In this document: in pieces, positions 26,170 to 42,540 of the stretch
Numbering within the stretch: the first letter of the stretch is position 1
Layout of the letters: every line of letters begins with the position of its first letter
Assembly (NCBI GenBank): GCA_046331705.1
Contig: JAXLQJ010000043.1
Coordinates: 1 to 64,000 of the forward strand
Reading direction: 5' to 3'
DNA: 64,000 nt
From: a bacterium
Lineage (GTDB): Bacteria > JADJOY01
Notes under the pieces: model-generated
Seen by the model: the letters and a program-made list of their open reading frames with translations, nothing else
What the model was told of the DNA's origin: nothing
Databases searched by the model: none
Translations under genes and position numbers: made by a program

Positions 26170-28395
26170 GTGAATAGCTGTGTTGTTGACAAGCTGAGCC
26201 CCCGACGCCCACGCGTCCAGGACCTGGCCCTTTGCCTCGTGCTGGGAGCGGCGATCGCCGCCGCCATGCCCGCCAGCGCGGCCTCCACGAAGTCCACGGT
26301 GGCCATTCCCATGCGCGACGGGAAGACCCTCGCCGCGGACGTCTACAAACCCACGAGCACCTCGGGTCCCTGGCCCGTGATCGTCGTTCAGACTCCCTAC
26401 GACCGACGCACCTGGGAGCCCATCTTCACCTTCGATCAGAACACCGATCCGTTGCTCAAGAGTCCCAACTACGCGTGGGTGTTCGTGGATTGGCGCGGCT
26501 TCTTCGGCTCGTCGAGCGCCCAGTACTCGGGTTGCCCCACCCGAGGCCAGGACGGCTACGACGTGGTCGAGTGGGTGGCCAAGCAATCGTTCAGCAACGG
26601 CAAGGTCGGCGCCTGGGGTGTATCCGCCCTGGGCACCGCGATCCTCGCCACCGCCCAAGAGGCGCCGCCGCACCTCGTGTCGGCGGTACCCATGCAGTAC
26701 TACTGGCGCGAGGGCTACGCGCTCAGCTACCCGGGCGGCGTCTACTACAAGAACCGCAACGACTCCCCGTTCGGGAACGGCTACCTGTCGCGCAACCATC
26801 CGCTCTACGACTGGTGGTGGACGCAGGTCGAGACGACCTCCAACCCCATCACGAGCGTGCGCATCCCGATGCTCCACGTGACGGGCTGGTACGACCACAT
26901 GACCGACACCACGCTCGGCGAGATGCAGCGCGTGCAGAGCGGTGGCGCCGCGGGCGCTGCCGGGAAGCAGAAGGCGCTCATCGGGCCGTGGTCGCACAGC
27001 CACGTGAGCGACGCCCAGCAAGGCCAGCTCAGCTACCCGGACGCGGCGACGATCCAGGCCACCGCGGCGCTCGAGTTCTTCGACTTCACGCTGCGCGGGA
27101 TCGCGAACGGATACAACCAACGCGCCACCTATCGCTACTACCAGACGAACGAGGGGCGGCTGGTCGACTCGGCGAGCTGGCCGCCCGCGGACGCGAGCAC
27201 GCAGACGTTCTATCTGCGGGGCGACGCGTCGCTGACGTTCGCGTCGCCGTCGGCGAGCGAGACGCCACGCTCGTACGTGGCCGACCCCGCGAATCCGGTG
27301 CCCACGCTCTTCGGCGCGGTCCTCGACGACGCCAACGCCACCACCGGCCCCGGCGATCTGCGGCCGATCGAAGCGCGTGGCGACGTGCTCTCGTTCTCGA
27401 CCCGACCGCTCTCCAACCCGCTGCCGATCGCCGGCCGTCCGCGGGTGCGTCTCAACCTCACGGCCACGACCGTCGACACCGACGTGGCGGTGCGCCTCAC
27501 GCAGGTGCGCGCCGACGGCAGCTCGATGCTGATCGTCGATTCGATCCGCCGCGTCTCGCTGCGGTCGGGCTACACCTCGCGTCAGATGCTGAGCTCCGGG
27601 ACCGTCTACACCGTGGACGTCGACCTGCCCTCGGTCGCGATCACCATCCCCGCGGGGGACCGTCTGCGGGTCCTCGTGGCACCGTCGAACTACGACCGCT
27701 TCGACAAGAACATGCAGGACGGCTCGTCGTTCTCGGACGCCACCGGCGCCGTGGCGACGCGCGGCACCGTGCAGATCCTCCTCGACTCGGCGCATCCCAG
27801 CACGTTGACGCTGCCTTCGGTCTCGACGCAGCCCACCGCGCCAGCGGCACCGAGCGCGCTCACCGCGGCGGCCGCCTCCACCACCTCCATCAACCTCGGC
27901 TGGAGCGACGGCTCGAGCAACGAGACCGGGTTCATGATCGAGCGCTCGACCGACGGCGCCAATTTCAGCGCCGTCGCCTCCGTGTCCGCGAACGAGGTCA
28001 GCTTCGCCGACGCCGGCCTCACCCCGTCGACGACCTACTACTACCGCGTGCACGCCTTCAATTCCGTGGGCGACTCGGCGAACACCACCGTCGCCAGCGC
28101 CATCACCCAGACCGCGCCGCCGGCGGCGCCGAGCGCGCTCGCGGCCAGCTCGATCGCGAAGACGCAGGTGGTGCTCACCTGGACCGACGGCTCGAGCAAC
28201 GAGACCAACTTCAAGGTCCAGCGCTCCACCGACAACAAGAACTTCTCGACCGTCGGCACGCTGGGCGCGAACGCGACCACCTTCACGAACACCGGGCTGC
28301 GCGGCGGCAAGACCTACTACTACCGCGTGTACGCGTACAACGGCGCCGGCAACTCGGCCTACTCGAACACCCTCACCGTCACCACCCCGCGCTGA
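26170..28395 (+). CDS. Secreted CocE/NonD family hydrolase with two C-terminal fibronectin type III domains
   Basis: MRDGKTLAADVY, TPY, DWRGFFGS, DGYDVVEW, WGVSALG, GWYD, IGPWSH; two FN3 repeats (W.DGSSNET.F...RSTD...YYYRV.A.N); start uncertain. Confidence 0.88.
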   Translation: MNSCVVDKLSPRRPRVQDLALCLVLGAAIAAAMPASAASTKSTVAIPMRDGKTLAADVYKPTSTSGPWPVIVVQTPYDRRTWEPIFTFDQNTDPLLKSPNYAWVFVDWRGFFGSSSAQYSGCPTRGQDGYDVVEWVAKQSFSNGKVGAWGVSALGTAILATAQEAPPHLVSAVPMQYYWREGYALSYPGGVYYKNRNDSPFGNGYLSRNHPLYDWWWTQVETTSNPITSVRIPMLHVTGWYDHMTDTTLGEMQRVQSGGAAGAAGKQKALIGPWSHSHVSDAQQGQLSYPDAATIQATAALEFFDFTLRGIANGYNQRATYRYYQTNEGRLVDSASWPPADASTQTFYLRGDASLTFASPSASETPRSYVADPANPVPTLFGAVLDDANATTGPGDLRPIEARGDVLSFSTRPLSNPLPIAGRPRVRLNLTATTVDTDVAVRLTQVRADGSSMLIVDSIRRVSLRSGYTSRQMLSSGTVYTVDVDLPSVAITIPAGDRLRVLVAPSNYDRFDKNMQDGSSFSDATGAVATRGTVQILLDSAHPSTLTLPSVSTQPTAPAAPSALTAAAASTTSINLGWSDGSSNETGFMIERSTDGANFSAVASVSANEVSFADAGLTPSTTYYYRVHAFNSVGDSANTTVASAITQTAPPAAPSALAASSIAKTQVVLTWTDGSSNETNFKVQRSTDNKNFSTVGTLGANATTFTNTGLRGGKTYYYRVYAYNGAGNSAYSNTLTVTTPR

Positions 28396-28498
28396 CGCGC
28401 GGTCGTTCACCCGCGCCCACGCCCGAAACGGCGTGCAGGGCGTGGGTGCCTCGACGGCAGCGAGGAGAGAGTGGCGCACGCTTGCGGCGCGCGCTGCC

Positions 28499-31144
28499 TC
28501 ACGGCTGGCTCGATCGCCAGCTCGCGATCCAGCGGTGAGCTTCGTCGAGGGCTTCGTCGTAGCCGCGCTCGGCCCCCGCGTTCATGGCCACAGTGAAGGC
28601 CGTCTCACCCAGCGCCGCGCGCGCCCGATCGACGAGTGGCCGCAGATAGCTCTCGTCGGGCGGGTCGCGGTGGAAATCGGTGCGATCGCGCTCGGCCTCC
28701 GAGGCACCGTAGAAACGGGCGGTGACCTCCCACTCGCCGCGGGTCGCGGCGAGCCCCGCGCAGACGTCGAGGACGAGCTGGCCCGTCATGCGGAGGTCGA
28801 ACTCCCGGGTCAGCGCCATCGCCTCGCGGGTTGGCTCGATCGCCCGCGCGGGCTCGCCTCGGCTCACCTCGTTCATGGCGAGGTTGAGGAGCCCGATCGA
28901 GAGGCTGGAGCGATCGTTGGTGCGTCGCCAGCAGTCGATCACCTCTTCGTAGAGCGTCTGCGCCACGTCGTGCTCGCCCCGGTAGCGATGGATCTCCGCG
29001 GCCGTGGTGAGGGTCATGCCGAGGGTTTCCGGGTCACCGAGGCGGCGCGCGATGGCGACGGCCTCGTCCGAGTGGGCACGGGATTGCGCCAGATCGCCCC
29101 GCACGGCGTCGAACCCGGCGATGTAGCGGAGGGTGAGCGCCGCCGAGTGATCGGCGCCGATCTCGCGTGCGATGGAGAGGCTCTCGCGCGCCGGCTCCTC
29201 CGCCTCGGCGTAGCGGCCCATCGAGAAGCCGAAGCGCATCCACTCGTAGAGCGCCTGGCAGCGCAGCGCGGTGCGTGCCTCTGCGCCGGGGCGGGCGAGC
29301 GCCTCGCGCACCAACCGGTGTCCCTGCTCGAGGCGGCCGCGCTGGCGCAGGTAGCTCGCGAGCGCGACGACCAGCCGGAGCCCGCGCTCGACGTGACGCG
29401 GCGCCTCGTCGCACCACGCGTGGGCGGCGAGCAGGTTCTCGAGGTCGGCGTCGAATGCGAGCCACGCGCCTGCATCGCCGGCGTGCGCGGTCTCGGGCGC
29501 CCGCTCGGCGATCGCCAGGTAGTGATCGAGATGGCGATCGCGGATCGCGGCTTCCTCGTCGGACTCGCGCAACCGCTCCAGCGCGTACGCGCGAATCGTC
29601 TCGAGCATGCGGTAGCGGCTGCGGTCCGGCTCGTGCACCACCAGCGATTTCTCGACCAGGTTGGTGAGCAGATCGACGACGTCGAAGGCGTCCACGTCGC
29701 CGGTGGCGCACACCGCCTCCGCGGCGTCGAGCGAGAACCCGCCCGCGAAGGCCGCCAGTCGTCGCACGAGCGCCCGCTCGGGCTCGGTGAGCAGGTCGTG
29801 GCTCCAGTCGATGAGCGCGCGCAGCGTCTGCTGGCGTTTGAGGGCAACCCGCGCGCCGCGGGTCAGGAGCCGGAAGCGATCGCCGAGACGCTCGGCGATC
29901 TGTTCCAGGGTGAGGCTCGACGCGCGCGCCGCGGCCAGCTCGATGGCGAGGGGGATGCCGTCGAGGCGCCGGCAGACGTCGGCGACGAGGGCTGCGTTGC
30001 GCTCGGTGAGCGCGAACGACGAGGCCACCTGCATGGCGCGGTCGACGAAGAGCTTCACCGCTTCCGATTGGGCGAGCTCGGCGAACGACGCACCCTCGTC
30101 CGGATCGATCAGCCCCAGCGACGGCACGCGATAGGTGCTCTCGCCCGGTATTCGCAGCGGCTCGCGGCTGGTGGCGAGAACCCGCGAGCGCGGGCTCGCT
30201 GCGAGCAGTGTCGCGACCAGCTCGGCGGCGGCTTCCACCAGGTGCTCGCAGTTGTCGACGATCACCAGCCGCTCTTCGGTGGCGATGCGCGCCGTCAGCG
30301 CGTCGAGCACGGGGCGCCCTGGCGGCACGGCGATGCCGAGCGCCGTGGCGGTCGCCTGTGGAACCTCGCGCTCGCTGGTGAGCGCCGCCAGCTCCACGAA
30401 CCACACGCCGTGCGGAAACCGTTCCACCAGCTCGCCGCTCACCTGCAACGCGAGACGCGTCTTGCCCGCGCCGCCCGAGCCCGTGAGCGTGACCAGTCGC
30501 GAGCGCGCCAGCGCCTGCCCGATCTCGGCGATGGGCTGCTCGCGGCCGATGAAGTGCGTGAGCTGAACCGGCAGGTTGTTCGGGATCGCGTCGAGGGTCT
30601 TGAGCGGCGGGAAGTCCTGGAGCAGGTCGGGTGCCACGAGCTGGTGAATGCGCTCGGGGCGGTTGAGGTCGCGAAGCCGGCGTTCGCCGAGGTCGCGCAG
30701 CGTGACATCGTGCGGGAGCCGGTCGCGCACCAGCTCGTAGGTCGCCTGCGTGAGCAGCACCTGGCCGCCGTGGCCGGCGCTCGTGAGCCGCGCGACGCGG
30801 TTCAAGAGCGGCCCGACGTAGTCGTCGTCGCGCTCCTCGGTCTCGCCCGAGTGAAGCGCCATCCGCACGCGGATCTCGGCGTCGCCCCAGGGCTCGGCCT
30901 TGAGCGCGCGCTGGGCGGCGACGGCGGCGGCGACTGCCGCGGGCGCGGTGTCGAAAGCGACCTGAAACGCATCGCCGATCATCTTGTACGGGTAGCCGTC
31001 GTGAGCCGCGAACGCTTCCCGCAGGAGCGCTTCCTGGCGCGCGTGTGCTTCCGCCATCCACGCCGGGCGCTCTTCCCAGAGCTGCGTCGAGCCCTCGATG
31101 TCGGTGAAGAGGAACGTCACCGTTCCGGAGGGCCGCCCGGACAT
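28499..31144 (-). CDS. Class III adenylate/guanylate cyclase - STAND ATPase - TPR protein (paralog E, 881 aa)
   Basis: FTDIEGST, KMIGDAF, DYVGPLLNRVARL; GSGGAGKTR; VDNCEH; LDGIPLAIELAAA; TPR-like C-terminus; TGATG overlap with paralog D. Confidence 0.9.
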   Translation of the reverse strand: MSGRPSGTVTFLFTDIEGSTQLWEERPAWMAEAHARQEALLREAFAAHDGYPYKMIGDAFQVAFDTAPAAVAAAVAAQRALKAEPWGDAEIRVRMALHSGETEERDDDYVGPLLNRVARLTSAGHGGQVLLTQATYELVRDRLPHDVTLRDLGERRLRDLNRPERIHQLVAPDLLQDFPPLKTLDAIPNNLPVQLTHFIGREQPIAEIGQALARSRLVTLTGSGGAGKTRLALQVSGELVERFPHGVWFVELAALTSEREVPQATATALGIAVPPGRPVLDALTARIATEERLVIVDNCEHLVEAAAELVATLLAASPRSRVLATSREPLRIPGESTYRVPSLGLIDPDEGASFAELAQSEAVKLFVDRAMQVASSFALTERNAALVADVCRRLDGIPLAIELAAARASSLTLEQIAERLGDRFRLLTRGARVALKRQQTLRALIDWSHDLLTEPERALVRRLAAFAGGFSLDAAEAVCATGDVDAFDVVDLLTNLVEKSLVVHEPDRSRYRMLETIRAYALERLRESDEEAAIRDRHLDHYLAIAERAPETAHAGDAGAWLAFDADLENLLAAHAWCDEAPRHVERGLRLVVALASYLRQRGRLEQGHRLVREALARPGAEARTALRCQALYEWMRFGFSMGRYAEAEEPARESLSIAREIGADHSAALTLRYIAGFDAVRGDLAQSRAHSDEAVAIARRLGDPETLGMTLTTAAEIHRYRGEHDVAQTLYEEVIDCWRRTNDRSSLSIGLLNLAMNEVSRGEPARAIEPTREAMALTREFDLRMTGQLVLDVCAGLAATRGEWEVTARFYGASEAERDRTDFHRDPPDESYLRPLVDRARAALGETAFTVAMNAGAERGYDEALDEAHRWIASWRSSQP

Positions 31145-33795
31145 CAGATCCTCGCGCCGCTCTCGAGACCTTCCAGCCAGCGCCGTGCCTCGGCGAGCAC
31201 TTCCTCGTAGCGCAGCCCGCGGCCCGCCGCTTCCGCCGCAACGTACGCGTCCTCGCCGAGGGCCTCGCGCGCCTGTGCGACGTGTCGCGCGACGAACTTC
31301 ACGTCCACGGGATCGCGGGAGATGCCGATCTGGATGCGATACGCCTCGGATGCGCCGTAGACCCGCGCAGCCAGCGACCACTCCTGCCGTGCGGCCGCGA
31401 GGGCGGCCGACACGTCGAGACCGTATTGGCCGATCGCCTTGAGGCTCGCTTCCGCGACGGTGGTGAGACCTTCGCGGAGTGGGGCCACGGCACGCGCGAG
31501 GTACCGGCGGTCGACGTGGATCGCGGCGAGGTTCAGGAGATCGAGGGAGACCGAGAGCCGGTCACCGAGCTTGCGGCCGATCGCCAGCGACTCCTCGTAG
31601 AGCGGCTCGGCCGCCTCGAGGTCCCCGCGGGTGCGCTGGATCTCCGCCAGGGTCGAGAGCGCGGTGGTCAGGGGAAGGGTGTCGGCGAGCCCACGCGCGA
31701 GCGAGATCGCCTCTTGGACGCGGGCCAGCGCCGTCTGCTCGTCGTTGCGGTACTGAGCCAGGAGGCCGAGCTGGCGAAGCGCCATCGCCGCGCGGTCGTT
31801 GGCGCCGAGCTCGCGGGCGATCTCCAGGGACTCCGTGGCCAGGCCCTCGGAGTCGCGACCCTGGAAGAGCCAACTCTTGAGGCGCGCAATCTCGTGGAGC
31901 GCCCGGCAGCGATGGAGCGTCCGCGCCTCGGCGCCCGGCCGCGAGATGGCCTGAAGTCCCACCCGCAGGCCGGGCTCGAGCATGCCGCGCGCATACCAGT
32001 AATCGCGCAGGGCGAGCATCAGCCGCAGCCCCGCCTCGGCGTGGCCGGCGCGCTGGTCGCACCACGCGTGCGCGGCCATGAAGTTCTCGTGATCGATCTC
32101 GAGGGCCTTCCACTTGGCGGTCTCGCCCGAGCGGATCGTCTCGCTCGCCTGCTCGGCGCGCGTCAGGTAGTGGGCGAGGTGGCGATCGCGCACCTCGATC
32201 TCCTCGTTCGCGGCTTGCAGGCGTTCGTACGCGTATTCGCGGATGGTCTCGAGGAGGCGGAACCGTTCGCTGCCTGGCTCGATCGCCACCAGCGACTTCT
32301 CCACCAAGTTGGTGAGGAGGTCGAGGACGTCGAGCTCGTCGACCTCTCCGCCCGCGCACACCGTCTCGGCGGCGTCGAGCGCGAAGCTTCCCGCGAACAC
32401 CGCGAGCCGCCGGAGCAGCACGCGCTCCGGCTCGGTCAGAAGCTCGTGGCTCCAATCGATGAGCGCACGCAGGGTCTGCTGGCGCGGCAGCGCGGCCCGG
32501 TCGCCGCGCGCCAAGAGCCGGAAGCGATCGCTCAGGCGCTCGGCGAGTCGCTCGACCGAGAGGCTGACCACGCGCGCCGCCGCCAGCTCGATCGCGAGCG
32601 GGATGCCGTCGAGCCGGCGGCAGATCTCGGCGACGATCGGGACGCTCGCGTCGGTGAGCACGAACGACGAGGTGACGTTCACGGCGCGATCGGCGAAGAG
32701 CCGCACGGCCTCCGAGCTCGCGAGCGTGGCGAGGGTCGCGCCTTCGTTGGGATCGGGGATCGCGAGGGAGGGGACCCGATAGGTCGCCTCGCCGGCGACC
32801 CGCAGCGGCTCGCGGCTGGTCGCCAGCACCCGCGAGCGCGGGCTCGCCCGCAGCAGCGCCGTGACGAGCTGGATCGACGCGCTCATCAGGTGCTCGCAGT
32901 TGTCGAGGATGACCAGCCGCTCCTCGCCCGTCACGCGCGCCAGCAGCGCCTCGATCACCGGACGTTCCGCGGCCTCCTCGACGCCGAGGGCCGTGGCCAC
33001 CGCCTGCGGCACCTCGTGCTCGTCGGTGAGGGGCGCCAGCTCCACGAACCACACCCCGTGCTCGAAGCGGTCGAGGAGCTCTCCGCCGAGCTGCAACGCG
33101 AGCCGGGTCTTGCCGGAGCCGCCCGATCCCGTGAGCGTTACCAGGCGCGAGCGCGCCAGGATCTGGGCCAGCTCGGCGATGGGCTGCTCGCGGCCGATGA
33201 AGTGCGTGAGCTGGACGGGCAGGTTGTTGGGGTGGGCGTCGAGGGTCTTGAGCGGCGGGAAGTCCTGGCGCAGACCGGGCACCAAGAGCAGGTGCACGCG
33301 CTCGGGGCGGTTCAGGTCGCGCAACCGGCGCTCGCCCAGGTCGCGCAGACGGATCGTGGCCGGCAGGCGATCGCGCACCAGCTCGCAGGTGCTCTGCGAG
33401 ATCAGCACCTGGCCGCCGTGCCCCGCGCTCATGAGCCGCGCGACGCGGTTGAGCAGCGGACCGACGTAGTCGTCGTCGCGCTCGTCGGTCTCACCCGAGT
33501 GAATCGCCATGCGCACGCGGATCTCGGATTCGCCCCACGGCTCGGCCTGGAGGGCACGCTGCGCGTCGATCGCCGCGGCGACCGCGGCGGGAGCCGAGGC
33601 GAACGCGACCTGGAAGGCGTCGCCGATCATCTTGTACGGGTAGCCGCCGTGTTTCTCGAACGCCGCGCGCAGCAGCTCTTCCTGGCGCGTGTGCGCCCTC
33701 GCCATCCACTCGGGGTGGTTCTCCCAGAGCTGGGTCGATCCTTCGATGTCGGTGAAGAGGAACGTGACCGTTCCGCTGGGGCGTTCGCTCGTCAT
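31144..33795 (-). CDS. Class III cyclase - STAND ATPase - TPR protein (paralog D, 883 aa)
   Basis: Same motif set; GSGGSGKTR, LDNCEH. Confidence 0.9.
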   Translation of the reverse strand: MTSERPSGTVTFLFTDIEGSTQLWENHPEWMARAHTRQEELLRAAFEKHGGYPYKMIGDAFQVAFASAPAAVAAAIDAQRALQAEPWGESEIRVRMAIHSGETDERDDDYVGPLLNRVARLMSAGHGGQVLISQSTCELVRDRLPATIRLRDLGERRLRDLNRPERVHLLLVPGLRQDFPPLKTLDAHPNNLPVQLTHFIGREQPIAELAQILARSRLVTLTGSGGSGKTRLALQLGGELLDRFEHGVWFVELAPLTDEHEVPQAVATALGVEEAAERPVIEALLARVTGEERLVILDNCEHLMSASIQLVTALLRASPRSRVLATSREPLRVAGEATYRVPSLAIPDPNEGATLATLASSEAVRLFADRAVNVTSSFVLTDASVPIVAEICRRLDGIPLAIELAAARVVSLSVERLAERLSDRFRLLARGDRAALPRQQTLRALIDWSHELLTEPERVLLRRLAVFAGSFALDAAETVCAGGEVDELDVLDLLTNLVEKSLVAIEPGSERFRLLETIREYAYERLQAANEEIEVRDRHLAHYLTRAEQASETIRSGETAKWKALEIDHENFMAAHAWCDQRAGHAEAGLRLMLALRDYWYARGMLEPGLRVGLQAISRPGAEARTLHRCRALHEIARLKSWLFQGRDSEGLATESLEIARELGANDRAAMALRQLGLLAQYRNDEQTALARVQEAISLARGLADTLPLTTALSTLAEIQRTRGDLEAAEPLYEESLAIGRKLGDRLSVSLDLLNLAAIHVDRRYLARAVAPLREGLTTVAEASLKAIGQYGLDVSAALAAARQEWSLAARVYGASEAYRIQIGISRDPVDVKFVARHVAQAREALGEDAYVAAEAAGRGLRYEEVLAEARRWLEGLESGARI

Positions 33796-33813
33796 CGGGG
33801 GCTCGCGGGGTGT

Positions 33814-33864
33814 GAGCGAGGGGTCACGTCATAGGCCAAACCGCGTCGGAACGCCAGACGATCC
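33814..33864 (-). promoter_or_regulatory. Conserved upstream element of paralog D (copy 1)
   Basis: Sense strand CTGG-nn-TTCCGACG-nnn-TT-nn-GCCTATGA-n-GTG; same blocks, spacing and distance to start as 39286-39334. Confidence 0.65.
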
Positions 33865-33960
33865 AGGGCCCGGTTCGGGCGACGCGGAATCGCGCGTCGA
33901 CGGTCGCGCCGAGGCAGGGGCGGGATCGCCGCCGCCGCGCCGGCTCGCCGCGTCGATCGA

Positions 33961-36609
33961 TCAGGTCGGCCGCGGCGAGAGGCTCGCGAGCCAGCGGCGA
34001 GTCTCGGCGACCGACTCTTCGTACGTGAGCGCGCGCCCCGCTGCTTCGGCGCTGGTGAAGGCGACGTCGCCGAGCGCGGCACGTGCCTGCTCGATCCGGG
34101 GCAGCACGTAGGCCGCGTCGACCGGCTCGCGGGTCCCGCCGATCCTGAGTCGCAGGCCCTCGGAGGCGCCGAAGATCCGCGCGGCGACGGGCCAGTCCTC
34201 GCGCGCAGCGGCGAGCGCCGCGCACACGTCGAGGGCGGGCTGCCCGAAGGCCTTGAGGCCGGCGTCGGCGATCACCGTGAGCGCTTCGCTCATCAGCCCG
34301 ATCGTGCGATCCACGGTGCCGCGCACCACGTTGAGCGCGCCGAGGTTGGAGAGCTGGAGCGCGATGCCGATCCGGTCCCCGAGCTCGCGTGCGACCATCA
34401 GCGCTTCTCCGTAGAGCGCCTCCGCCAGCGTGAGATCACCGTCTTCGCGGTGGAACTCCGCCATCGTACCGACCGCCGTCGCGAGCGGGCGGCGATCCGT
34501 CAGCCCGCGGGCGAGCTCGATCGCCTGCTGGCCGTGCGCTCGGGCGGCCGCGCCGTCTCCGCGCCAGCCGGCGAACGCCGCGAGCATGCGGTGGCCCGAC
34601 GACGCGAGATCGGGGGCGCCGATCTCGCCGGCGATCGCGACCGCCTCGGTCGCGTAGGGTTCGCCTTCGCCCCCGACCCCCATCCACATGTGGAGCCGTG
34701 CGACCTCGAGCAGCGCTCGGCACCGCAGCAGCGTCCGCGGCTCGGCGCCCGGCCGGTCGAGCGCGCGCAGCGCGACGCGCAGACCCTGCTCGAAGATCGC
34801 GCGCGCTGGCCAGTAGTCGGCCAGCGCGATCACCAAGCGAAGACCGTCCTCGGCGTGGCCGGGCGCGAGGTCGCACCAGGCGTGCGCCGCCATGAAGTTC
34901 TCGTGCTCCGCCTCGAACGACTGCCACGCCCCCGGCTCGCCCGAGCGCAGCGAGCCCGCCGCTTGCTCGGCGCGCGCGAGGACGTAGCGCAGGTGCCGCT
35001 CGCGGACCTCCCGCTCCTCGCCCGCGGCCCGCAGCCGCTCCAGCGCGTACTCGCGGATGGTCTCGAGGAGGCGGTAGCGCTGGTCCTCGGGCTCGAGCAC
35101 GACCAGCGACTTCTCCACCAGATCGGTCAGCAGGTCGACGACGTCGAGCTCGTCGACCTCCCCGCCCGCGCACACCGCCTCCGCCGCCTCCAGCACCCAG
35201 CCGCCCGAGAACGCCGCGAGCCGCCTGAGCAGCACGCGCTCCGGCTCGGTGAGCAGCTCGTGGCTCCAGTCGATGAGCGCGCGCAGCGTCTGCTGGCGCG
35301 GCAGCAGCGCGCGATCGCCGCGTGCCAGCAGCCGGAACCGGTCGCTCAGCCGGTCGGCGAGCTTCTCGACGGAGAGCCCGGTGATGCGCGCTGCCGCGAG
35401 CTCGATCGCGAGCGGTATGCCGTCGAGGCGGCGGCAGATGTCCGCGACGATCACCACGTTCGCGTCGGTGAGCGCGAACGACGACGAGGCGCTGGTGGCG
35501 CGATCGGCGAACAGCCGAACCGCCTCGGAGGTCGCGAGCGCCGCCGCCGGCACGCCGCCCTGAGGATCGGGGATCTCGAGCGACGGCACCCGGTAGGTCA
35601 GCTCGCCGGTCACGCGCAGCGGCGCGCGGCTGGTGGCCAGCACCCGCGTGCGCAGGCTCGCCCTGAGCAGCGTGGGCACGAGCTGCACCGACGCCGCCAT
35701 CAGGTGCTCGCAGTTGTCGAGGATGACCAGCCGCTCCTCGTCGGCGAGGCGCTCCGTCAGGGTCTCGAGCACCGGCCGGCCGGAGGCGTCCTCGATGCCG
35801 AGGGCGGTGGCGATCGCCTGGGGAACCTCGCGCGCGTCGGTGAGCGGCGCCAGCTCGACCAGCCACACCCCGTGCGTGAAGCGCTCCAGCACCTCGCTGC
35901 CGACCTGCAGCGCGAGGCGCGTCTTGCCGGCGCCGCCCGAGCCCGTGAGCGTCACCAGCCGCGAGCGCTCGAGGGCGTGCGCGACGTCGGCGATGGCGCG
36001 CTCGCGGCCGATGAAGTGGGTGAGCTGGACCGGCAGGTTGTTGGGGAGCGCGTCGAGGGTCTTGAGCGGCGGGAAGTCCTGGCGCAGGCCCGGCACCACG
36101 AGCTGGTGGACGCGCTCGGGGCGATTCAGGTCGCGCAGCCGGCGCTCGCCGAGGTCGCGCAGCCCGATCGTCCGCGGCAGCCGGTCGCGCACCAGCTCGC
36201 AGGTGCTCTGGGTGAGCAGCACCTGGCCGCCGTGGCCGGCACTCATGAGGCGTGCGACGCGGTTGAGGAGCGGGCCGACGTAGTCCTCGCCGCGCTCCTC
36301 GGTCTCGCCGGTGTGGAGCGCCATGCGCACCTTGATCTCGCCCGGGCCGCCCCACGGCTCGGCGGCGAGGGCGCGCTGCGCCTCGACCGCAGCGGCGACC
36401 GCGGCGGGCGCCGAGCCGAACGCGACCTGGAAGGCGTCGCCGATCATCTTGTACGGATAGCCGCCGTGGGCGGCAAAGGCGTCGCGGAGGATCGCCTCCT
36501 GGCGCGCGTGGGCGGTGGCCATCCACTCGGGGTGATGCTCCCAGAGCTGGGTCGAGCCCTCGATGTCCGTGAAGAGGAAGGTCACGGTCCCGGAGGGGCG
36601 CGGCGTCAT
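33961..36609 (-). CDS. Class III cyclase - STAND ATPase - TPR protein (paralog C, 882 aa)
   Basis: True start MTPRPSGT at 36609 (ATGA overlap with paralog B); same motif set. Confidence 0.9.
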   Translation of the reverse strand: MTPRPSGTVTFLFTDIEGSTQLWEHHPEWMATAHARQEAILRDAFAAHGGYPYKMIGDAFQVAFGSAPAAVAAAVEAQRALAAEPWGGPGEIKVRMALHTGETEERGEDYVGPLLNRVARLMSAGHGGQVLLTQSTCELVRDRLPRTIGLRDLGERRLRDLNRPERVHQLVVPGLRQDFPPLKTLDALPNNLPVQLTHFIGRERAIADVAHALERSRLVTLTGSGGAGKTRLALQVGSEVLERFTHGVWLVELAPLTDAREVPQAIATALGIEDASGRPVLETLTERLADEERLVILDNCEHLMAASVQLVPTLLRASLRTRVLATSRAPLRVTGELTYRVPSLEIPDPQGGVPAAALATSEAVRLFADRATSASSSFALTDANVVIVADICRRLDGIPLAIELAAARITGLSVEKLADRLSDRFRLLARGDRALLPRQQTLRALIDWSHELLTEPERVLLRRLAAFSGGWVLEAAEAVCAGGEVDELDVVDLLTDLVEKSLVVLEPEDQRYRLLETIREYALERLRAAGEEREVRERHLRYVLARAEQAAGSLRSGEPGAWQSFEAEHENFMAAHAWCDLAPGHAEDGLRLVIALADYWPARAIFEQGLRVALRALDRPGAEPRTLLRCRALLEVARLHMWMGVGGEGEPYATEAVAIAGEIGAPDLASSGHRMLAAFAGWRGDGAAARAHGQQAIELARGLTDRRPLATAVGTMAEFHREDGDLTLAEALYGEALMVARELGDRIGIALQLSNLGALNVVRGTVDRTIGLMSEALTVIADAGLKAFGQPALDVCAALAAAREDWPVAARIFGASEGLRLRIGGTREPVDAAYVLPRIEQARAALGDVAFTSAEAAGRALTYEESVAETRRWLASLSPRPT

Positions 36610-39266
36610 GTCGCTCCCTCGCCGTCGTGGCCACGGATGGAGGTGAGCCAGGCGCGGGCGTCGTCGAGCGCGGCGTCGTAGCCGAGCCCCCGCCCGGCGG
36701 CCTCCGCCGCGGCGTAGGCGTCGTCGCCGAGCGCCTCCCGAGTGGCGGCCAGGGACGGCTCGAGATAGGCGTCGTCCATCGCGTCGCGGACCATCCCGAT
36801 CCTCAACCGGAGCGCCTCGGCCGCGCCATAGAGCCGCGCGGCGACGTCCCACTCGCGTCGCAGGGCGGCGAGACCGGTGCACACGTCGAGGGTGTACTGG
36901 CTGGCGGACTTGAGGTCGAGCTCGGTGGCGATCCCGAGCGCCTCGATCAGGATCGGCACCGCGCGCTCGCCGGTGCCGCGCTTCACGTTGAGCGCGGCGA
37001 GGTTGAGCAGCCCGAGCGAGAGCGTGACACGCTGGCCTCCGCTGCGGTGCAGGCCCACGGCCTCCAGGTAGTGGACCTCGGCGCGCTCGAGGTCTCCGAC
37101 CTGGCGCAGGAACTCGGCCAGCGACTCGAGGCTCGGGGCGAGGATGTTGCGCGCCGGGTTGGCGCGCGCCACGGCGACGGCCTCCTCGAACATCGGCCGG
37201 GCGGCGTGGGCCTCGCCGCGCGAGCTCACGTAGACGCCGAGCAGGCGGAGCCCGCGGCAGATGGCCGTGGGATCGCCGAGCTCGCGGGCGATCGCGAGGC
37301 CCTCCGCGGCGGCCGCCTCGCCATCCCCGGCCTGGCCGACCCAGAGCTGGTACCAGGCCAGGTCGTAGAGGCCGAAGCAACGGATCAGCGTGTGCTGCTC
37401 GGCTCCCGGTCGAGCGAGGGCGCGGCGCACCATCTGGTGCCCCTGCTCGAGCACGTCCCGAGCCGAGAAGTAGGAAGTGAGCGCGCGCACCAGCCGCAAC
37501 CCATGCTCGGCGTGGCCGGGTGCCTGGTCGCACCACGCGCCCGCGGCGAGGAGGTTCTCGTGGTCGGGCTCGAGGGCGCGCCGCACCGCCAGGTCGCCGC
37601 GCTGGATCGGATCGGAGGAGCGCTCGGCGAGTGCCAGGTAGTGGGCGAGGTGGCGCTCGCGGACGTCGGTCTCCTCGCCGGCCGCGCGCAGTCGCTCGAG
37701 GGCGTACTCGCGGATGGTCTCGAGGAGACGGTAGCGCTCGCCGCCGGGCTCGAGCACCACCAGCGACTTCTCGACCAGGTCGGTGAGCAGGTCGAGGACG
37801 TCGCCCTCGTCGACGTCGCCGCCCGCGCACACCGCCTCCGCCGCCTCGAGCGAGAAGCTGCCGGCGAATGCCGCGAGCCGCCGCAGCAGCACGCGCTGCT
37901 CCTCCGCGAGCAGCTCGTGGCTCCAGTCGATGAGCGCGCGCAGCGTCTGCTGGCGCGGCAAGCCCACCCGGCTGCCGCGAGTGAGGAGGCGGAAGCGGTC
38001 GCCGAGGCGGCTCGCGAGCTTCTCGACCGAGAGGCTGGTGGCGCGCGCGGCGGCCAGCTCGATCGCGAGCGGGATGCCGTCGAGGCGGCGGCAGATGTCG
38101 ATCACCACGCTCACGTTGGCCTCGCTGAGCGCGAAGGTGGGGGACACGCTCGCGGCGCGATCGACGAAGAGCCGCACCGCCTCCGACGCGGCGGTCTCGG
38201 CGAAGCTCGCGCTCTGCTCCGGGCCCGGGATCTCGAGCGAGGGCACGCGGTAGGTGAGCTCGCCGGGGATCCGGAGCGGCTCGCGGCTGGTGGCGAGGAT
38301 TCGCGTGTGCGGGCTCGCCTGGAGCAGCTTCGACACCACCACCGCCACGCCGCGCACCAGGTGCTCGCAGTTGTCGAGGACGAGCAGGCGCTGCTCGCCC
38401 GCGAGGCTCTCGACCAGGGTGTCGAGGGTGGGCCGGCCGGCGACCTCTTCGACGCCGAGCGCCGCGGCCACCGCGGGCGCGATCTCGCGGTCGTCGACCA
38501 GCGCGCCCAGCTCGATCAGCCACACGCCGTGGGCGAAGCGGTCGAGGATCTCGCTGCCGAGCTGCAGCGCCAGCCGGCTCTTCCCCGCGCCGCCGGCGCC
38601 GGTGAGGGTCACGAGCCGCGAGCGCTCGAGCGACTGCGTGAGCTCGGCGAGCGGCTGCTCGCGGCCCACGAACTGGGTGATCTGCACCGGCAGGTTGTTG
38701 GGCAGCGCGTCGAGGGTCTTGAGCGGCGGGAACTCTTGGCGAAGCCCGGGGACGACGAGCTGGTGGACGTGCTCCGGGCGGTTGAGGTCGCGCAGCCGGC
38801 GCTCGCCCAGGTCACGCACGCCGATGCGCGCCGGCAGCCGGTCGCGCACGAGGTCGTAGGTGGTCTGGGAGAGGAGCACCTGGCCGCCGTGGCCGGCGCT
38901 CATGAGGCGCGCGACGCGGTTCAGGATCGGGCCGACGTAGTCGTCGCCGCGCTCCTCGGTCTCGCCGGTGTGGAGCGCCATGCGCACGCGGATCTCGCCA
39001 GGCCCGCCCCACGGCTCGGACTGGAGGGCGCGCTGTGCGCCGACCGCCGCCGCGACGGCGGTGGGCGCCGAGCCGAACGCCACCTGGAAGGCGTCGCCGA
39101 TCATCTTGTACGGGTAGCCGCCGTGGGCGGAGAAGACCTCGCGCAGGATCGCTTCCTGGCGCGCGTGGGCCCTCTCCATCCACTCGGGGTGGTTCTCCCA
39201 GAGCTGGGTCGAGCCCTCGATGTCGGTGAAGAGGAACGTGACGGTTCCGGATGGACGAGCTGCCAC
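36606..39266 (-). CDS. Class III cyclase - STAND ATPase - TPR protein (paralog B, 886 aa)
   Basis: Same motif set; GAGGAGKSR; GTG start. Confidence 0.9.
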   Translation of the reverse strand: MAARPSGTVTFLFTDIEGSTQLWENHPEWMERAHARQEAILREVFSAHGGYPYKMIGDAFQVAFGSAPTAVAAAVGAQRALQSEPWGGPGEIRVRMALHTGETEERGDDYVGPILNRVARLMSAGHGGQVLLSQTTYDLVRDRLPARIGVRDLGERRLRDLNRPEHVHQLVVPGLRQEFPPLKTLDALPNNLPVQITQFVGREQPLAELTQSLERSRLVTLTGAGGAGKSRLALQLGSEILDRFAHGVWLIELGALVDDREIAPAVAAALGVEEVAGRPTLDTLVESLAGEQRLLVLDNCEHLVRGVAVVVSKLLQASPHTRILATSREPLRIPGELTYRVPSLEIPGPEQSASFAETAASEAVRLFVDRAASVSPTFALSEANVSVVIDICRRLDGIPLAIELAAARATSLSVEKLASRLGDRFRLLTRGSRVGLPRQQTLRALIDWSHELLAEEQRVLLRRLAAFAGSFSLEAAEAVCAGGDVDEGDVLDLLTDLVEKSLVVLEPGGERYRLLETIREYALERLRAAGEETDVRERHLAHYLALAERSSDPIQRGDLAVRRALEPDHENLLAAGAWCDQAPGHAEHGLRLVRALTSYFSARDVLEQGHQMVRRALARPGAEQHTLIRCFGLYDLAWYQLWVGQAGDGEAAAAEGLAIARELGDPTAICRGLRLLGVYVSSRGEAHAARPMFEEAVAVARANPARNILAPSLESLAEFLRQVGDLERAEVHYLEAVGLHRSGGQRVTLSLGLLNLAALNVKRGTGERAVPILIEALGIATELDLKSASQYTLDVCTGLAALRREWDVAARLYGAAEALRLRIGMVRDAMDDAYLEPSLAATREALGDDAYAAAEAAGRGLGYDAALDDARAWLTSIRGHDGEGAT

Positions 39267-39285
39267 GATGAGCTCCGCGCGCCGC

Positions 39286-39334
39286 GAGCGCGGGCCACTT
39301 CATAGGCTGAATGCCGTCGGAAGACCAGCCATCC
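39286..39334 (-). promoter_or_regulatory. Conserved upstream element of paralog B (copy 2)
   Basis: Homologous to 33814-33864; the CATAGGC block on + begins 35 bp from the start codon in both. Confidence 0.65.
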
Positions 39335-39391
39335 CTGCGCGTGCGTCGAGGGTGCGTGCCCGCCGGGTGCCCTCGGCCCGTGCCGTCGGCC

Positions 39392-42037
39392 TCAGGCGCT
39401 CGAGAGCGCGAGGGTCGCGAGCCAGCGGCGGGCCTCGGCGAGCGCCTCCTCGTAGGAGAGCCCGCGGCCCTTCGTCTCGTGCTCGGCGAAGCCTTGGTCG
39501 CCGAGCGCGGCGCGCGTGCGCGCGACCAACGGCGCGAAGAATGCCTCGTCCACCGGCTCGCGCTGCGAGCCCATGCGCAGGCGGTGCGCATCCGACGCGC
39601 CGTAGAGTCGGGCCGCGGTTTCCCACGCCTGAATCGTCGCGGCGAGGCCCGCGCACACGTCCAGGGCCACCTGACCGGTGGTGCGGACGCCCGCTTCACC
39701 GACGATGCCGAGCACCTCGACGAGGTGATCGCGGGCTGGGGCGAGCTTGCCGCAGCTCATGGAGAGCATCGCGAGATTGACCAAGTTGAGCGACACGTTG
39801 ATGCGATCGCCCGAGGCGCGCGAGACCGTCAAGGACTCCAGGTAGAGCGGCTCGGCGCGGTCGAGCCGCCCCACGTGGCGATGGATCTCGGCCAGCGCCA
39901 TGAGGGCCGCTTGGCGCGGCCGGGGATCGGGGAGGCGCTCGGCGATGGCGAGCGCTTCCTCGCAGTGTCGCAGCGCCTCGGCGACGTCTCCGCACATGTA
40001 AGTGGCGACGCCGAGCATGCGCAGCGCGTTGGTGGCGCAGTCGTCCGCGCCGATCTCGCGGGCGATCGCCAGGCTCTCTCGCGCCTGGGCCTGCGCGTCG
40101 GCGTAGTGCCCGAGCGGCACGCTCATCCACGGCAGCAGCGCCAGCACCTGGGCGCGCAGCCGCGTGGGGCGCTCGGCGCCCGGGCGAGCGAGGGCTGCGA
40201 TCGAGTGCCGAAGCCCGAGCTCCATCAGGCCGCGTGACCACCAGTAGTCGCGCAACGCCAGCACCAGGCGCAGACCGTCTTCGGCGTACTCCGGCTTGGT
40301 GTCGCAGGTGGCGAGCGCGGCCAGGAAATTGTCGTGCTCGACGTCGAGCATGCGCCACTCCACGTCCTGGCAGCTTCCGGCGCGCTCGATGAGGCGAGCC
40401 GCCCGCGTCACGTGGTAGCGCAGATGGCGTTCGCGAACGCTCGCCGCGTCGGGCGCGGCGCACAGCCGTTCGAGGGCGTACGCGCGGATCGTCTCGAGCA
40501 ACCGGTAGCGCTCGCCGTCGGGTTCCAGCACGACCAGCGACTTCTCCACCAGGTTCGCGAGCAGCTCGAGGACGTCGGTCGGGTCCAGATCGCCGCCTGC
40601 GCACACGGCTTCGACGGCCTCGAGCGCGAAGCCGCCGGCGAACGCCGCGAGCCGCCGAAGCAGCGTGCGCTCGGGCTCGCTCAGCAAGTCGTGACTCCAG
40701 TCGATCAACGCACGGAGCGTCTGCTGGCGCGGCAGCGCCACGCGGTTGCCGCGCACCAAGAGCCGGAACCGATCGCTCAAGCGCGCCGCGAGCTTCTCGA
40801 CGGAGAGATTCGAGACCCGCGCCGCGGCCAGCTCGATCGCCAGCGGGATGCCGTCGAGCCGCCGACAGATCTCGGCGACCACGCGGAGGTTCCTATCGGA
40901 GAGCGTGAACGAGGACGAGGCCGCGCTGGCGCGATCGGCGAAGAGCCGCACGGCCTCACACTGGGCGAGGAGCGCGAGCGGCACCTCGTCGCGGCCGTCG
41001 GGCAACGTGAGCGACGGCACCCGATAGGTGGTCTCGCCGGGGACGCGTAGCGGCTCGCGGCTGGTGACGAGGACGCGCGAGCGGGTGCTCGCTTGGAGCA
41101 GCGTCGTGGCGATCTCGGCGGCGGCGTCCACCAGGTGCTCGCAGTTGTCGAGGATCACGAGCCGCTCCTCGTCCGCGAGGCGCGCCGTCAGCGTGTCGAG
41201 CACGGGACGGCCCGAGGGCGCTTGGATCCCGAGCGCGGTGGCGACGGCTTGCGACACCTCGCCCGCGTCGGCGAGCGGCGCCAGCTCGACGAGCCACACG
41301 CCGTGCGCGAAGCGCTCGAGCAGCTCGCTGCCGACCTGCAGCGCCAGCCGCGTCTTGCCCGCGCCGCCCGAGCCCGTGAGCGTCACGAGGCGCGCGCGCG
41401 AGAGCGCTTGCACCAGCTCGGCGATCGGCTGCTCGCGCCCGATGAAGTGGGTGAGCTGGACGGGCAGGTTGTTGGGCAGGACGTCGAGGGTCCTGAGCGG
41501 CGGAAAGTCCTGACGCAGCCCGGGCACCACCAGCTCGTGGATTCGCTCGGGCCGGTTCAGGTCGCGCAGCCGCCGCTCGCCCAGGTCGCGCAACGTGACG
41601 CCCGCCGGCAGCCGATCGCGCACCAGCTCGTGGGTGGCCTGGGTGAGCAGGATCTGCCCGCCGTGGCCGACGCTCATGAGCCGCGCCACGCGGTTCAAGA
41701 GCGGGCCTACGTAATCGTCGTCGCGCTCCTCGGTCTCGCCCGTGTGCAACGCCATGCGCACCCGGATGTCCGCGCGGCCCCACGGCTCGGCTTGCAGCGC
41801 GCGTTGCGCGTCCACGGCAGCGGCGACGGCCGCGGGGGCGGTGGCGAAGGCGACCTGGAACGCGTCGCCGATCATCTTGTACGGATAGCCCGCGTGAGCC
41901 GCGAAGACGTCGCGGAGCAGGATTTCCTGGCGCGTGTGCGCCTCGGCCATCCAGTCGGGGTGCTCCTCCCAGAGCTGGGTGCTCGCCTCGATGTCGGTGA
42001 AGAGGAAGGTCACCGTCCCCGATGGCCGAGCGGTCAT
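39392..42037 (-). CDS. Class III cyclase - STAND ATPase - TPR protein (paralog A, 881 aa)
   Basis: Start MTARPSGT at 42037 overlaps the folA stop (ATGA); same motif set. Confidence 0.9.
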   Translation of the reverse strand: MTARPSGTVTFLFTDIEASTQLWEEHPDWMAEAHTRQEILLRDVFAAHAGYPYKMIGDAFQVAFATAPAAVAAAVDAQRALQAEPWGRADIRVRMALHTGETEERDDDYVGPLLNRVARLMSVGHGGQILLTQATHELVRDRLPAGVTLRDLGERRLRDLNRPERIHELVVPGLRQDFPPLRTLDVLPNNLPVQLTHFIGREQPIAELVQALSRARLVTLTGSGGAGKTRLALQVGSELLERFAHGVWLVELAPLADAGEVSQAVATALGIQAPSGRPVLDTLTARLADEERLVILDNCEHLVDAAAEIATTLLQASTRSRVLVTSREPLRVPGETTYRVPSLTLPDGRDEVPLALLAQCEAVRLFADRASAASSSFTLSDRNLRVVAEICRRLDGIPLAIELAAARVSNLSVEKLAARLSDRFRLLVRGNRVALPRQQTLRALIDWSHDLLSEPERTLLRRLAAFAGGFALEAVEAVCAGGDLDPTDVLELLANLVEKSLVVLEPDGERYRLLETIRAYALERLCAAPDAASVRERHLRYHVTRAARLIERAGSCQDVEWRMLDVEHDNFLAALATCDTKPEYAEDGLRLVLALRDYWWSRGLMELGLRHSIAALARPGAERPTRLRAQVLALLPWMSVPLGHYADAQAQARESLAIAREIGADDCATNALRMLGVATYMCGDVAEALRHCEEALAIAERLPDPRPRQAALMALAEIHRHVGRLDRAEPLYLESLTVSRASGDRINVSLNLVNLAMLSMSCGKLAPARDHLVEVLGIVGEAGVRTTGQVALDVCAGLAATIQAWETAARLYGASDAHRLRMGSQREPVDEAFFAPLVARTRAALGDQGFAEHETKGRGLSYEEALAEARRWLATLALSSA

Positions 42038-42540
42038 GCGGGGATCCTGCGGCGATAGCGCCGCACGCGGAGCGCGGGGTCGTCGTGGGGTTCGAGGGGG
42101 CCGGCTTCCCACTCGGCTTCGTCGATCGCCGGAAAGCGCACCGCGCGCGGATCGGTGACCGAGTCGGGAACGTAGGTCACGTCGATCAGGTTCGCGTGGC
42201 GGAGCGCGTCGGCGTAGATGCGCGCGCCGCCGATGAACCAGATCGGCCCGTCGAGGTGCGCGAGCGCGTCGTCGATGCTCGGGTACGCCTCGACGCCGGC
42301 GAGGGCGCGGCTCGCGATCACCACGTTCCGTCGCCCGGGCAGCGGCTTGCCGCCGATCGACTCCCAGGTGAGCCGGCCCATCACGATCGTGGTGCCGAGC
42401 GTGAGGCGTTTGAAGCGCTTCAGGTCGGCCGAGTGGTGCCAGGGAATCCGGCCGTCGAGGCCGATGACGCCCTCGGGCGAGACCGCGACGATGATCCCGC
42501 GAAGGTCAGGGCGCGCGAGCTCGGCGTCGAAGGCGGTCAC
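42034..42540 (-). CDS. folA: Dihydrofolate reductase
   Basis: VIGLDGRIPWHHSADLKRFKRLT, VMGRLTWESI, PLPGRRNVV, FIGGARIY; follows thyA. Confidence 0.93.
   Translation of the reverse strand: MTAFDAELARPDLRGIIVAVSPEGVIGLDGRIPWHHSADLKRFKRLTLGTTIVMGRLTWESIGGKPLPGRRNVVIASRALAGVEAYPSIDDALAHLDGPIWFIGGARIYADALRHANLIDVTYVPDSVTDPRAVRFPAIDEAEWEAGPLEPHDDPALRVRRYRRRIPA

Follow-up and report, generated by a model that had tools for sequence, protein, structure and literature searches.

The first 64,000 nucleotides of the bacterial contig JAXLQJ010000043.1 (assembly GCA_046331705.1, lineage JADJOY01), the stretch analyzed here as a whole and called the window, carry an array of five genes for paralogous proteins that combine a class III nucleotide cyclase, a STAND-type ATPase, and tetratricopeptide repeats (TPR) in one polypeptide. 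Taken by itself, the array is an unexceptional case of paralog expansion in a family that is already known and widespread but uncharacterized. On balance, with somewhat better than an even chance, we consider the five proteins to be STAND-gated adenylate cyclases that act as ligand-gated sensors and feed the general cyclic AMP (cAMP) network of the cell. Each paralog carries an old and conserved type of TPR region and is therefore expected to answer a different ligand. A previous sequence-only reading of the same DNA had favored an NLR-like receptor repertoire, possibly an undescribed immune or non-self sensing system, and this alternative was weighed together with several others.

The genes are arranged head to tail on the minus strand and lie at 39392-42037 (g5, 881 aa), 36606-39266 (g4, 886 aa, GTG start), 33961-36609 (g3, 882 aa), 31144-33795 (g2, 883 aa), and 28499-31144 (g1, 881 aa, the last gene of the array). 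Start codons were assigned by N-terminal alignment of the five open reading frames (ORFs). Coordinates and lengths agree with the sequence-only reading, which had listed five co-oriented paralogs of 881-886 aa at 28499..42037. All five ORFs are intact, and the full-length copies are 61-69% identical among themselves. The G+C content at third codon positions (GC3) was 0.87-0.95 for four of the ORFs, the scan having taken an opposite-strand ORF at g3. Every protein matched the Pfam cyclase model Guanylate_cyc (PF00211) at residues 3-160 approximately (36.7-42.8 bits, cut-off 21.9), AAA_22/NB-ARC at about 200-430, and TPR_12/TPR_10/TPR_MalT at about 590-810. The NB-ARC scores were above the cut-off of 23.5 bits for g2 (23.8) and g5 (30.2) and below it for g1 (18.5), g3 (20.2), and g4 (16.5); AAA_22 exceeded its cut-off of 27 in four of the five proteins. 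For g4 the minus-strand modules are the cyclase domain (38742-39266, aa 1-175, PF00211 42.8 bits), the NOD (nucleotide-binding oligomerization domain) composed of P-loop NTPase, helical part, winged helix, and arm (37632-38684, aa 195-545, Pfam AAA_22/NB-ARC/nSTAND), and the TPR sensor with a conserved C-terminal cap (36609-37631, aa 546-886, Pfam TPR_10/TPR_12/TPR_MalT). The cyclase-STAND-TPR architecture read from the letters alone was thereby recovered in all five proteins, and so was the lack of a C-terminal LuxR helix-turn-helix (HTH), as the Pfam scan found no GerE/LuxR domain in any of them. No NCBIfam family was above cut-off for the five proteins; the best one, HaaT, reached 67-83 bits versus 1125.

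Class III cyclases employ two metal-binding Asp, a Lys and an Asp for the substrate, and an Asn and an Arg for the transition state. All six residues (D15, K54, D58, D108, N115, and R119 in g1 numbering) were invariant in g1-g5, and the blocks YPYKMIGDAFQVAF and CRRLDGIPLAIELAAAR were invariant in the five-way alignment as well; both the canonical residue set and the near-invariance of these blocks had been noticed before. Among 52 aligned family members, both metal Asp, the Asn, and the Arg were kept in all, and the substrate Lys/Asp pair in 46. Counted per position, Met replaces the substrate Lys (position 54 of g4) in six of the 52 members and Gly replaces the substrate Asp (position 109) in six, which may point to a subgroup preferring a different nucleotide or none at all. 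For the five array proteins cAMP is predicted as the product from the presence of the Lys/Asp pair. The cyclase domain of g4 found GRESAG4 and Ma1120 as sequence matches in the PDB and 1fx4, 4wp9, and 1ybu with Foldseek, with target-normalised TM-scores for the cyclase fold of 0.85-0.91 for Ma1120, 0.87 for the Rv1900c cyclase homology domain, and 0.69 for GRESAG4.

For the ATPase part the patterns GxxGxGK[ST] (Walker A), hhhhD (Walker B), the sensor Arg, and GxP (GIPLA) were tested. The five-way alignment contained Walker A GSGGAGKT, Walker B LVILDN, TSR, and DGIPLAIELAA, and none of the 52 family members deviates at Walker A K229, Walker B D298-N299, or the sensor R328 (g4 numbering). The His of the MHD motif is a feature of plant and animal NB-ARCs. 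No such His was found at the corresponding place, which reads RYRLLE with Leu in 51 of 52 members; since the position was located by eye, this test carries little weight. The 52-sequence alignment served to model g4 with AlphaFold2 (mean pLDDT 88, pTM 0.63). The model comprises an alpha/beta cyclase, an alpha/beta NTPase that includes helical and winged-helix elements, and approximately 17 repeat helices, the TPR region being all-helical. Its top Foldseek match was 6mfv, the resting STAND-TPR protein PH0952 (E 1.2e-13), followed by the class III cyclases GRESAG4, Ma1120, and Rv1900c, ADP-bound Apaf-1, CED-4, and the plant proteins NRC and ZAR1. For the NOD the E values were 3.8e-9 with Apaf-1 (1z6t) and 1e-8 to 1e-7 with NRC, ZAR1, and CED-4. 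The modelled fold of g4 resembles that of resting STAND-TPR proteins.

PH0952, a predicted transcription factor, is described with the same order of effector, NOD, arm, and TPR sensor, and the STAND switch as a transition from a closed ADP-bound monomer via inducer binding to an ATP-bound multimer (PMC6468293). We infer for the array proteins ligand gating, activation driven by oligomerization, cAMP as product, a physiological rather than an immune role, and co-transcription. At rest, each protein would be a closed ADP-bound monomer, its lone cyclase domain being unable to build the dimeric class III active site. Binding of a ligand to the TPR sensor would open the NOD, ATP binding would lead to oligomerization, and the cyclase domains would thereby meet and synthesize cAMP. 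A different stable ligand, either a metabolite or a protein, would be expected for each paralog, with all of them converging on cAMP, which would be read by general cyclic nucleotide (cNMP)-binding proteins encoded elsewhere. The genome itself (8.17 Mb in 118 contigs) yielded 11 cNMP_binding matches and 10 cyclase-domain matches, five of the latter in the array, which are the five cyclase copies of the family. No cNMP_binding match (PF00027) was found on the contig of the array and no effector adjoins it, so that the receptor, as assumed in the sequence-only reading, has to be sought elsewhere in the genome.

The order of effector, NOD, arm, and TPR sensor is shared by the array proteins with PH0952 (6mfv), MalT, AfsR, and PknK-type kinases. 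PknK-annotated kinases were 38% identical to g4 residues 191-819 and carry Pkinase, NB-ARC, TPR, and GerE domains. Unlike the array proteins, all of these have DNA-binding domains or a kinase as effectors, and none is reported as a five-gene array. The own genome (G000) further encodes two kinase-NOD-TPR proteins of 1034 aa (L006:571-3675, plus strand, C20) and 1055 aa (L007:793-3960, minus strand, C25), with orthologs in the relatives G001, G002, G003, and G005. Their chassis is 38-46% identical to g4 at about 180-780, and an N-terminal Ser/Thr kinase replaces the cyclase. The outputs found on this chassis, the Ser/Thr kinases in the own genome and the cyclase-NB-ARC-LuxR regulator and PknK-type kinases among named relatives, are signalling modules and not killing effectors, which favors the sensor reading.

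Among named proteins, the one closest in sequence comes from mycobacteria and combines cyclase, NB-ARC, and LuxR parts. A plasmid of Mycobacterium sp. JS623 encodes an 1106-aa "LuxR family transcriptional regulator" with Guanylate_cyc, NB-ARC, and GerE (63.2 bits) domains in Pfam, which was 43% identical to g4 residues 5-703 (711 aligned columns, E 4e-148). In M. tuberculosis, the cyclase-NB-ARC-LuxR proteins Mclx (Rv0386, Rv1358, and Rv2488c) are described as three separately named genes, unlike the array, and Rv0386 is reported, in work cited there, to be active as a cyclase and to play a part in macrophage cAMP (PMC4452763). The array proteins have the N-terminal class III cyclase, the NB-ARC-type NTPase, the helical repeats, and the same C-terminal cap in common with Mclx, but end about 220 residues earlier, without the GerE/LuxR HTH. 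They also keep the Lys/Asp pair, whereas the JS623 relative has other residues at the aligned positions. No experimental study of a LuxR-less cyclase-NB-ARC-TPR protein was found in the literature. The mycobacterial proteins bear on the very improbable case that the cyclase domains are not the output at all, being nucleotide-binding or inactive regulatory modules, or that the copies are decaying duplicates. Besides the JS623 relative lacking Lys and Asp, Mclx2 and Mclx3 are without canonical residues and were proposed as regulators (PMC4452763). In the array, however, the six catalytic residues are invariant in all five copies, the ORFs are intact with the high GC3 values given above for the four picked by the scan, and the dN/dS ratio (omega) of the cyclase domain across orthologs was 0.10-0.25.

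The paralogs differ mainly in their sensors. Mean pairwise identity was 0.83 in the cyclase (80-87% for the individual pairs), 0.70 in the NTPase, 0.72 in the ARC/winged helix part, 0.50 in the first TPRs (alignment columns 545-640), 0.41 in columns 640-800, and 0.50 in the C-terminal cap, with NOD motifs invariant. This per-domain comparison bore out the combination of a conserved output with a divergent sensor proposed earlier. Between close ortholog pairs (94-95% identity), omega was 0.09-0.16 for the TPR region versus 0.10-0.15 for the cyclase, and in 60-codon windows over seven ortholog pairs it never reached 1 (maximum 0.82). Purifying selection acts on every domain, and between close orthologs the TPR region is as constrained as the cyclase. 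The dN/dS of 0.8 among paralogs in the central TPRs was considered as a sign of positive or relaxed selection and rejected, because the divergence there is high (Nei-Gojobori dN 0.59, dS 0.74) and the orthologs show the opposite. TPR regions under purifying selection with orthologs in relatives, named in the sequence-only reading itself as evidence that would refute its proposal, are largely what was observed.

Selection does not account for the whole pattern. In the TPR tree, g5 and the G003_b copy of the relative G003 are sisters with a support of 100/100. The N-terminal alignment rejects this grouping (approximately unbiased test, p 0.0008), the group having been named after the trees were seen. 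A sliding nearest-neighbor scan placed g4 residues 1-240 nearest to the g3 type and the remainder nearest to its own TPR ortholog, and g5 is a mosaic in the same manner. Cyclase-NOD and TPR modules have different histories, with modular exchange of the N-terminal chassis versus the TPRs. The pattern of a conserved signalling module therefore results in part from sequence exchange among the members, and not from selection alone.

Searches at order, class, and phylum level returned the same six species genomes, belonging to two genera of one family; the phylum is therefore very thinly sampled. Its genomes have sizes of about 5.5-8.4 Mb, and the G+C content here is 70%. Well supported TPR orthogroups connect the array with these relatives. 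The g1 type occurs in G001-G004 and thus in five of six genomes counting G000, the g2 type (G002_x2C) and the g4 type in G002, the g3 type in G001 (G001_p1, about 95%) and G004 (G004_b2C), and the g5 type in G003 (G003_b) with a relative in G005. At least four additional TPR lineages that are not present in the own genome were seen in the TPR tree. The paralogs are therefore older than the genus and in part older than the family. Gene content is less stable. In G003, whose array lies on an uninterrupted contig of 274 kb, only two copies are present (five here) and unrelated genes for dehydrogenases come next; a frame-shifted N-terminal fragment lies 30 kb from its array (L103:7620-8515). G002 contains decayed copies, one being a truncated cyclase-only ORF within the array (L104:14552-14998) and one a copy with an in-frame TAG (L110:2-982). 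Gene order varies among the relatives, and the pairing of g4/g3 and g2/g1 is not kept.

In G002, the g1 ortholog is immediately followed, on its own strand, by the gene for a 1485-aa CHAT-TIR-P-loop-TPR protein (L104:5848-10305, minus strand). It is distantly similar to the family (26% identity in the TPRs), and its gene sits between the array and the gene for a CocE hydrolase. In the window, only 103 nt are found at this place, between g1 and the convergent CocE/NonD hydrolase gene (26089-28395, plus strand, assigned by Pfam) downstream of it.

Upstream of the array, the co-oriented run begins with thyA for thymidylate synthase (42554-43489, minus strand; Thymidylat_synt E 3.7e-85, TIGR03284 243.6 bits with a cut-off of 108.35), followed by folA for dihydrofolate reductase (42034-42540, minus strand; Pfam DHFR_1 119.4 bits, cut-off 25). 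The folA stop overlaps the g5 start as ATGA. In five of five relatives thyA-folA is likewise directly followed by a family member (spacers of 26-128 nt), so that this arrangement is found in six of six genomes. The type of the first gene after folA differs: it is g5 here, of g1 type in G003 and G004, of g4 type in G002, and of other types in G001 and G005. Outside this lineage the linkage disappears, as among the 77 kept loci of the family only L027, a same-genus locus, has thyA/folA near a family gene. A functional thyA-folA link as a trait of the family was consequently rejected. The linkage is specific to the lineage and probably marks the founding site of the array. The five genes are probably co-transcribed with thyA-folA, or read through from there. 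A consensus scan found no promoter- or terminator-like site at 27800-44600, which is weak evidence in DNA of 70% G+C.

Within the array, the g4 stop and the g3 start overlap as ATGA and the g2 stop and the g1 start by 1 nt as TGATG, while g5-g4 and g3-g2 are separated by 125 nt and 165 nt, respectively. Both spacers contain a 27-nt conserved element of the pattern TTCCGACG-N3-TT-N2-GCCTATGA-N-GTG without mismatch, located on the minus strand at 39296-39322 (copy 1, g5-g4 spacer) and 33825-33851 (copy 2, g3-g2 spacer), in each case about 30 nt upstream of the start of g4 or g2. The element thus stands before each translationally coupled pair (g4/g3 and g2/g1). A third copy with two mismatches was found upstream of G001_p2 (L026:2760-2786), again about 30 nt from the start. 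The element may serve as promoter, operator, or leader. Its placement before both pairs is one of the points that would fit with the five proteins co-assembling as hetero-oligomers, i.e. a mixed "cyclasome" or sensor/helper pairs, which is compatible with signalling as well as with immunity, but which we judge improbable. The translational coupling of g4/g3 and g2/g1, the shared element before both pairs, the high identity of the cyclases together with the invariant NOD motifs, and the sequence exchange that keeps the N-terminal modules similar are all consistent with it. Against it stand the complete catalytic residues in all five proteins, none of which resembles a dedicated non-catalytic partner, the different gene order in the relatives, where the pairing is lost, and the predominance of single-copy loci elsewhere (65 of 77).

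As 118 contigs were needed for the assembly and repeats are hard to assemble, a collapse or a chimera of copies from a metagenome bin had to be considered. Contigs from three runs of three studies (X1, X5, and X6) span g2/g1, g4/g3, the g5/g4 spacer, and folA/g5 at 99% identity or more, and the X1 contigs additionally span the g3/g2 spacer. At least half of the sampled words from 31000-40900 were present in 18 public runs, and by their labels the runs carrying this DNA are metagenomes from wastewater or activated sludge. The label of run X19 suggests RNA as a possibility; this run yielded small pieces only and is probably DNA. The copies are, moreover, merely 61-69% identical. Since the gene junctions are covered by contigs of three mutually independent runs, the array is genuine and no artefact; an assembly error, already judged unlikely before, is thereby extremely improbable.

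The family extends far beyond this phylum. A scan with one genome per species detected at least 611 loci across many phyla, and the protein search indicated at least 8000 family proteins, all 8000 scored candidates having E values of 1e-20 or below. The best foreign matches have about 878 aa, are 47-50% identical over 98-99% of g4, and are labelled "predicted ATPase/class 3 adenylate cyclase" by JGI. In a sample of one genome per family, three of 35 families outside the own one gave a match. Plasmid or chromid records with relatives numbered 297 and came chiefly from rhizobia, Streptomyces, and Rhodococcus; in no case was 80% of the query covered. From phage records the family is nearly absent (three of 50,697, all of them uncultured contigs). 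The family is broad and slowly evolving. Fusions of STAND and AP-ATPases to cyclases were reportedly noted in early comparative papers. Tandem sets within 10 kb occurred at 12 of the 77 kept loci, with two copies at five and three copies at seven of them; outside the own lineage, 11 of 74 loci had such sets. Flanking ORFs extracted from loci in other phyla numbered 244, of which the 125 from the first 36 loci were compared with Pfam and PADLOC models. In Pfam, the matches of these 125 were mostly to housekeeping or metabolic families, without a recurrent partner. PADLOC matches at E<=1e-6 were obtained for seven of the 125 ORFs, and most of these were generic (methyltransferase, patatin, amine oxidase, ankyrin, and RecQ). 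In the locus L058 (4131-8118, plus strand, labelled Anaerolineales), two family members are succeeded by the genes for a small cyclase standing alone (PycC models, E 1.5e-12) and for a 998-aa HEAT-repeat protein with a C-terminal cNMP_binding domain, the sole cNMP receptor neighbor among the 36 loci.

Two further STAND genes are present in the window, 15 kb from the array. They are tandem minus-strand genes with FGE-sulfatase domains, one for a TIR-NACHT-FGE protein of 1201 aa (10111-13716) and one for a NACHT-FGE protein of 947 aa (7174-10017), with 74-88% identity between their 3' ends. It was considered whether a diversity-generating retroelement acts on them, and this was rejected; the repeats are the paralogous 3' ends, and the 27 mismatches are without adenine bias. 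FGE-sulfatase sensors are mentioned in a 2026 survey of prokaryotic STANDs (PMC13581612). Elsewhere in the window, at 21140-25306, the minus strand carries two overlapping genes, one LOG/SLOG-like (Lysine_decarbox) and one for a beta-CASP metallo-beta-lactamase; they are followed on the plus strand by genes of the CMD family and of the radical SAM/DUF3641 type. The own-genome profile matches comprised four TIR_2, three CHAT, and two NACHT domains.

The immune explanation states that the array is an NLR-like repertoire of non-self receptors, in which the TPRs recognize proteins of phages or competitors and a cyclic nucleotide activates a remote effector, combining sensing as in Avs with an output as in Pycsar or Pucsar. 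We regard it as possible, although on the unlikely side. Avs and bacterial NLR-related proteins are described with an N-terminal effector and a mostly TPR-like C-terminal sensor and oligomerize on their target (PMC13581612). The array proteins resemble them in having a STAND NTPase with an N-terminal effector and a C-terminal TPR sensor, so that the tripartite architecture of effector, NOD, and repeats is in favor of immunity. Unlike the array proteins, Avs carry killing domains (such as nucleases and Sir2) as effectors and stand in defence neighborhoods; here a cyclase in a housekeeping context was found. In the STAND survey, 198 of 589 clades are given as defence-associated and non-immune STANDs are noted among the clades, and the word "cyclase" is absent from its main text and six supplement files (PMC13581612). 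Cyclic nucleotide cyclase domains are listed among the signalling modules of NTP-dependent conflict systems by Kaur et al. 2020 (PMC7159879). A preprint on Pucsar (10.64898/2026.08.12.744502) delineates an "Immune clade 1" in which cyclases are joined to STANDs of the NACHT and AP-ATPase kinds and for which an immune role is predicted there from architecture, neighborhoods, and long branches; this is in favor of an immune function of the array, with which the clade was compared by described architecture. Pycsar and Pucsar cyclases, described there as mostly stand-alone and beside a cNMP-binding TIR or transmembrane effector (10.64898/2026.08.12.744502), share with the array proteins the class III-type cyclase as signal generator, but the array lacks such an adjoining effector.

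Further support for an immune repertoire comes from the clustering of genes whose sensors are far more divergent than their output domain, from the recombination of sensor and chassis modules, from the tandem sets of two or three copies that recur at 11 of 74 loci outside the lineage, and from the conflict-type genes nearby, i.e. the CHAT-TIR-P-loop-TPR gene in G002 and the two FGE-sulfatase STANDs in the window, one of them with a TIR domain. The copy-number survey suggested by the sequence-only reading sided with its immune proposal in part: copy number, content, and order vary (two copies in G003 versus five here), truncated or broken copies occur in G002 and G003, and the CHAT-TIR neighbor and the FGE STANDs were found, whereas the TPR types turned out to have orthologs.

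With PADLOC the five proteins matched only generic TPR (best E 1.5e-6), mad8, TRIP13, BrxF, and PycC models at 14-26 bits, and no Avs model. The PycC models reached 14-17 bits with g4 (E 8.4e-4) and g3 (E 4.5e-3) and did not match g1, g2, and g5. Among the 28 other ORFs of the window, two had PADLOC matches, SbcC (to SMC-like models) and the TIR part of the STAND gene. The missing cNMP_binding gene on the contig and the missing adjoining effector, the position after thyA-folA in all six genomes of the phylum, and the mostly housekeeping flanks in foreign genomes also speak against an immune system, as do the age of the TPR types and the purifying selection on them. The slow evolution of the family across phyla contrasts with the long branches of the immune clades in the preprint (10.64898/2026.08.12.744502). 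Finally, the Lys/Asp pair predicts cAMP, a general messenger, and an immune signal of this kind would cross-talk with the 11 receptor domains of the genome. The designation as immune was not supported, in view of the lack of meaningful PADLOC matches to the five proteins and of defence context in the foreign flanks scanned (125 ORFs from 36 loci). The label "undescribed" had to be given up, since the family is very large and annotated, Mclx is homologous to it, and for STAND-fused cyclases a function in immunity had already been predicted in the 2026 preprint (10.64898/2026.08.12.744502).

The evolutionary observations can be joined into one more explanation, which we take as rather unlikely. 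The array would be an NLR-like bank that evolves like the NLR clusters of plants, in which old TPR cassettes are shuffled onto a cyclase-NOD chassis homogenized by gene conversion and genes are gained and lost. Its members would sense non-self proteins of phages or competitors, alone or as mixed oligomers, and would signal to remote effectors via a cyclic nucleotide.

We are aware of several points that weigh against our preference for ligand-gated cAMP sensors in general signalling. In the literature, activity, ligand, or oligomer was not found for any LuxR-less member of the family. The likeness of the N-terminal parts of the paralogs stems partly from sequence exchange and not just from selection on the output. 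Immune clusters of the NLR type likewise show diversified tandem sensors, presence/absence variation, and truncated copies, and conflict-type STAND genes are near, adjoining the array in G002 and 15 kb off in the window. STAND-fused cyclases are placed in a predicted immune clade (10.64898/2026.08.12.744502). Purifying selection, too, is compatible with immunity, since constraint would likewise be expected on sensors that recognize conserved phage proteins.

With a length of about 878 aa, cyclase-NB-ARC-TPR proteins rank among the more common multidomain cyclases of environmental bacteria, and for the LuxR-less members neither ligand nor product nor role was found in the literature. If the STAND-gated cAMP sensor model is true, dimerization of cyclases driven by STAND oligomerization would be a simple and general route from ligand binding to cAMP. 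If the immune explanation is true, the array would represent a pathway from STAND to cyclic nucleotide in immunity without an experimentally characterized example so far. The question of signalling versus immunity for STAND-fused cyclases has been raised by the Pucsar preprint (10.64898/2026.08.12.744502). With five natural variants of near-identical output and different sensors, the array is handy for finding ligands and for addressing this question. Conserved sensors combined with an exchanged chassis also make it a clean bacterial parallel to the evolution of NLR clusters.

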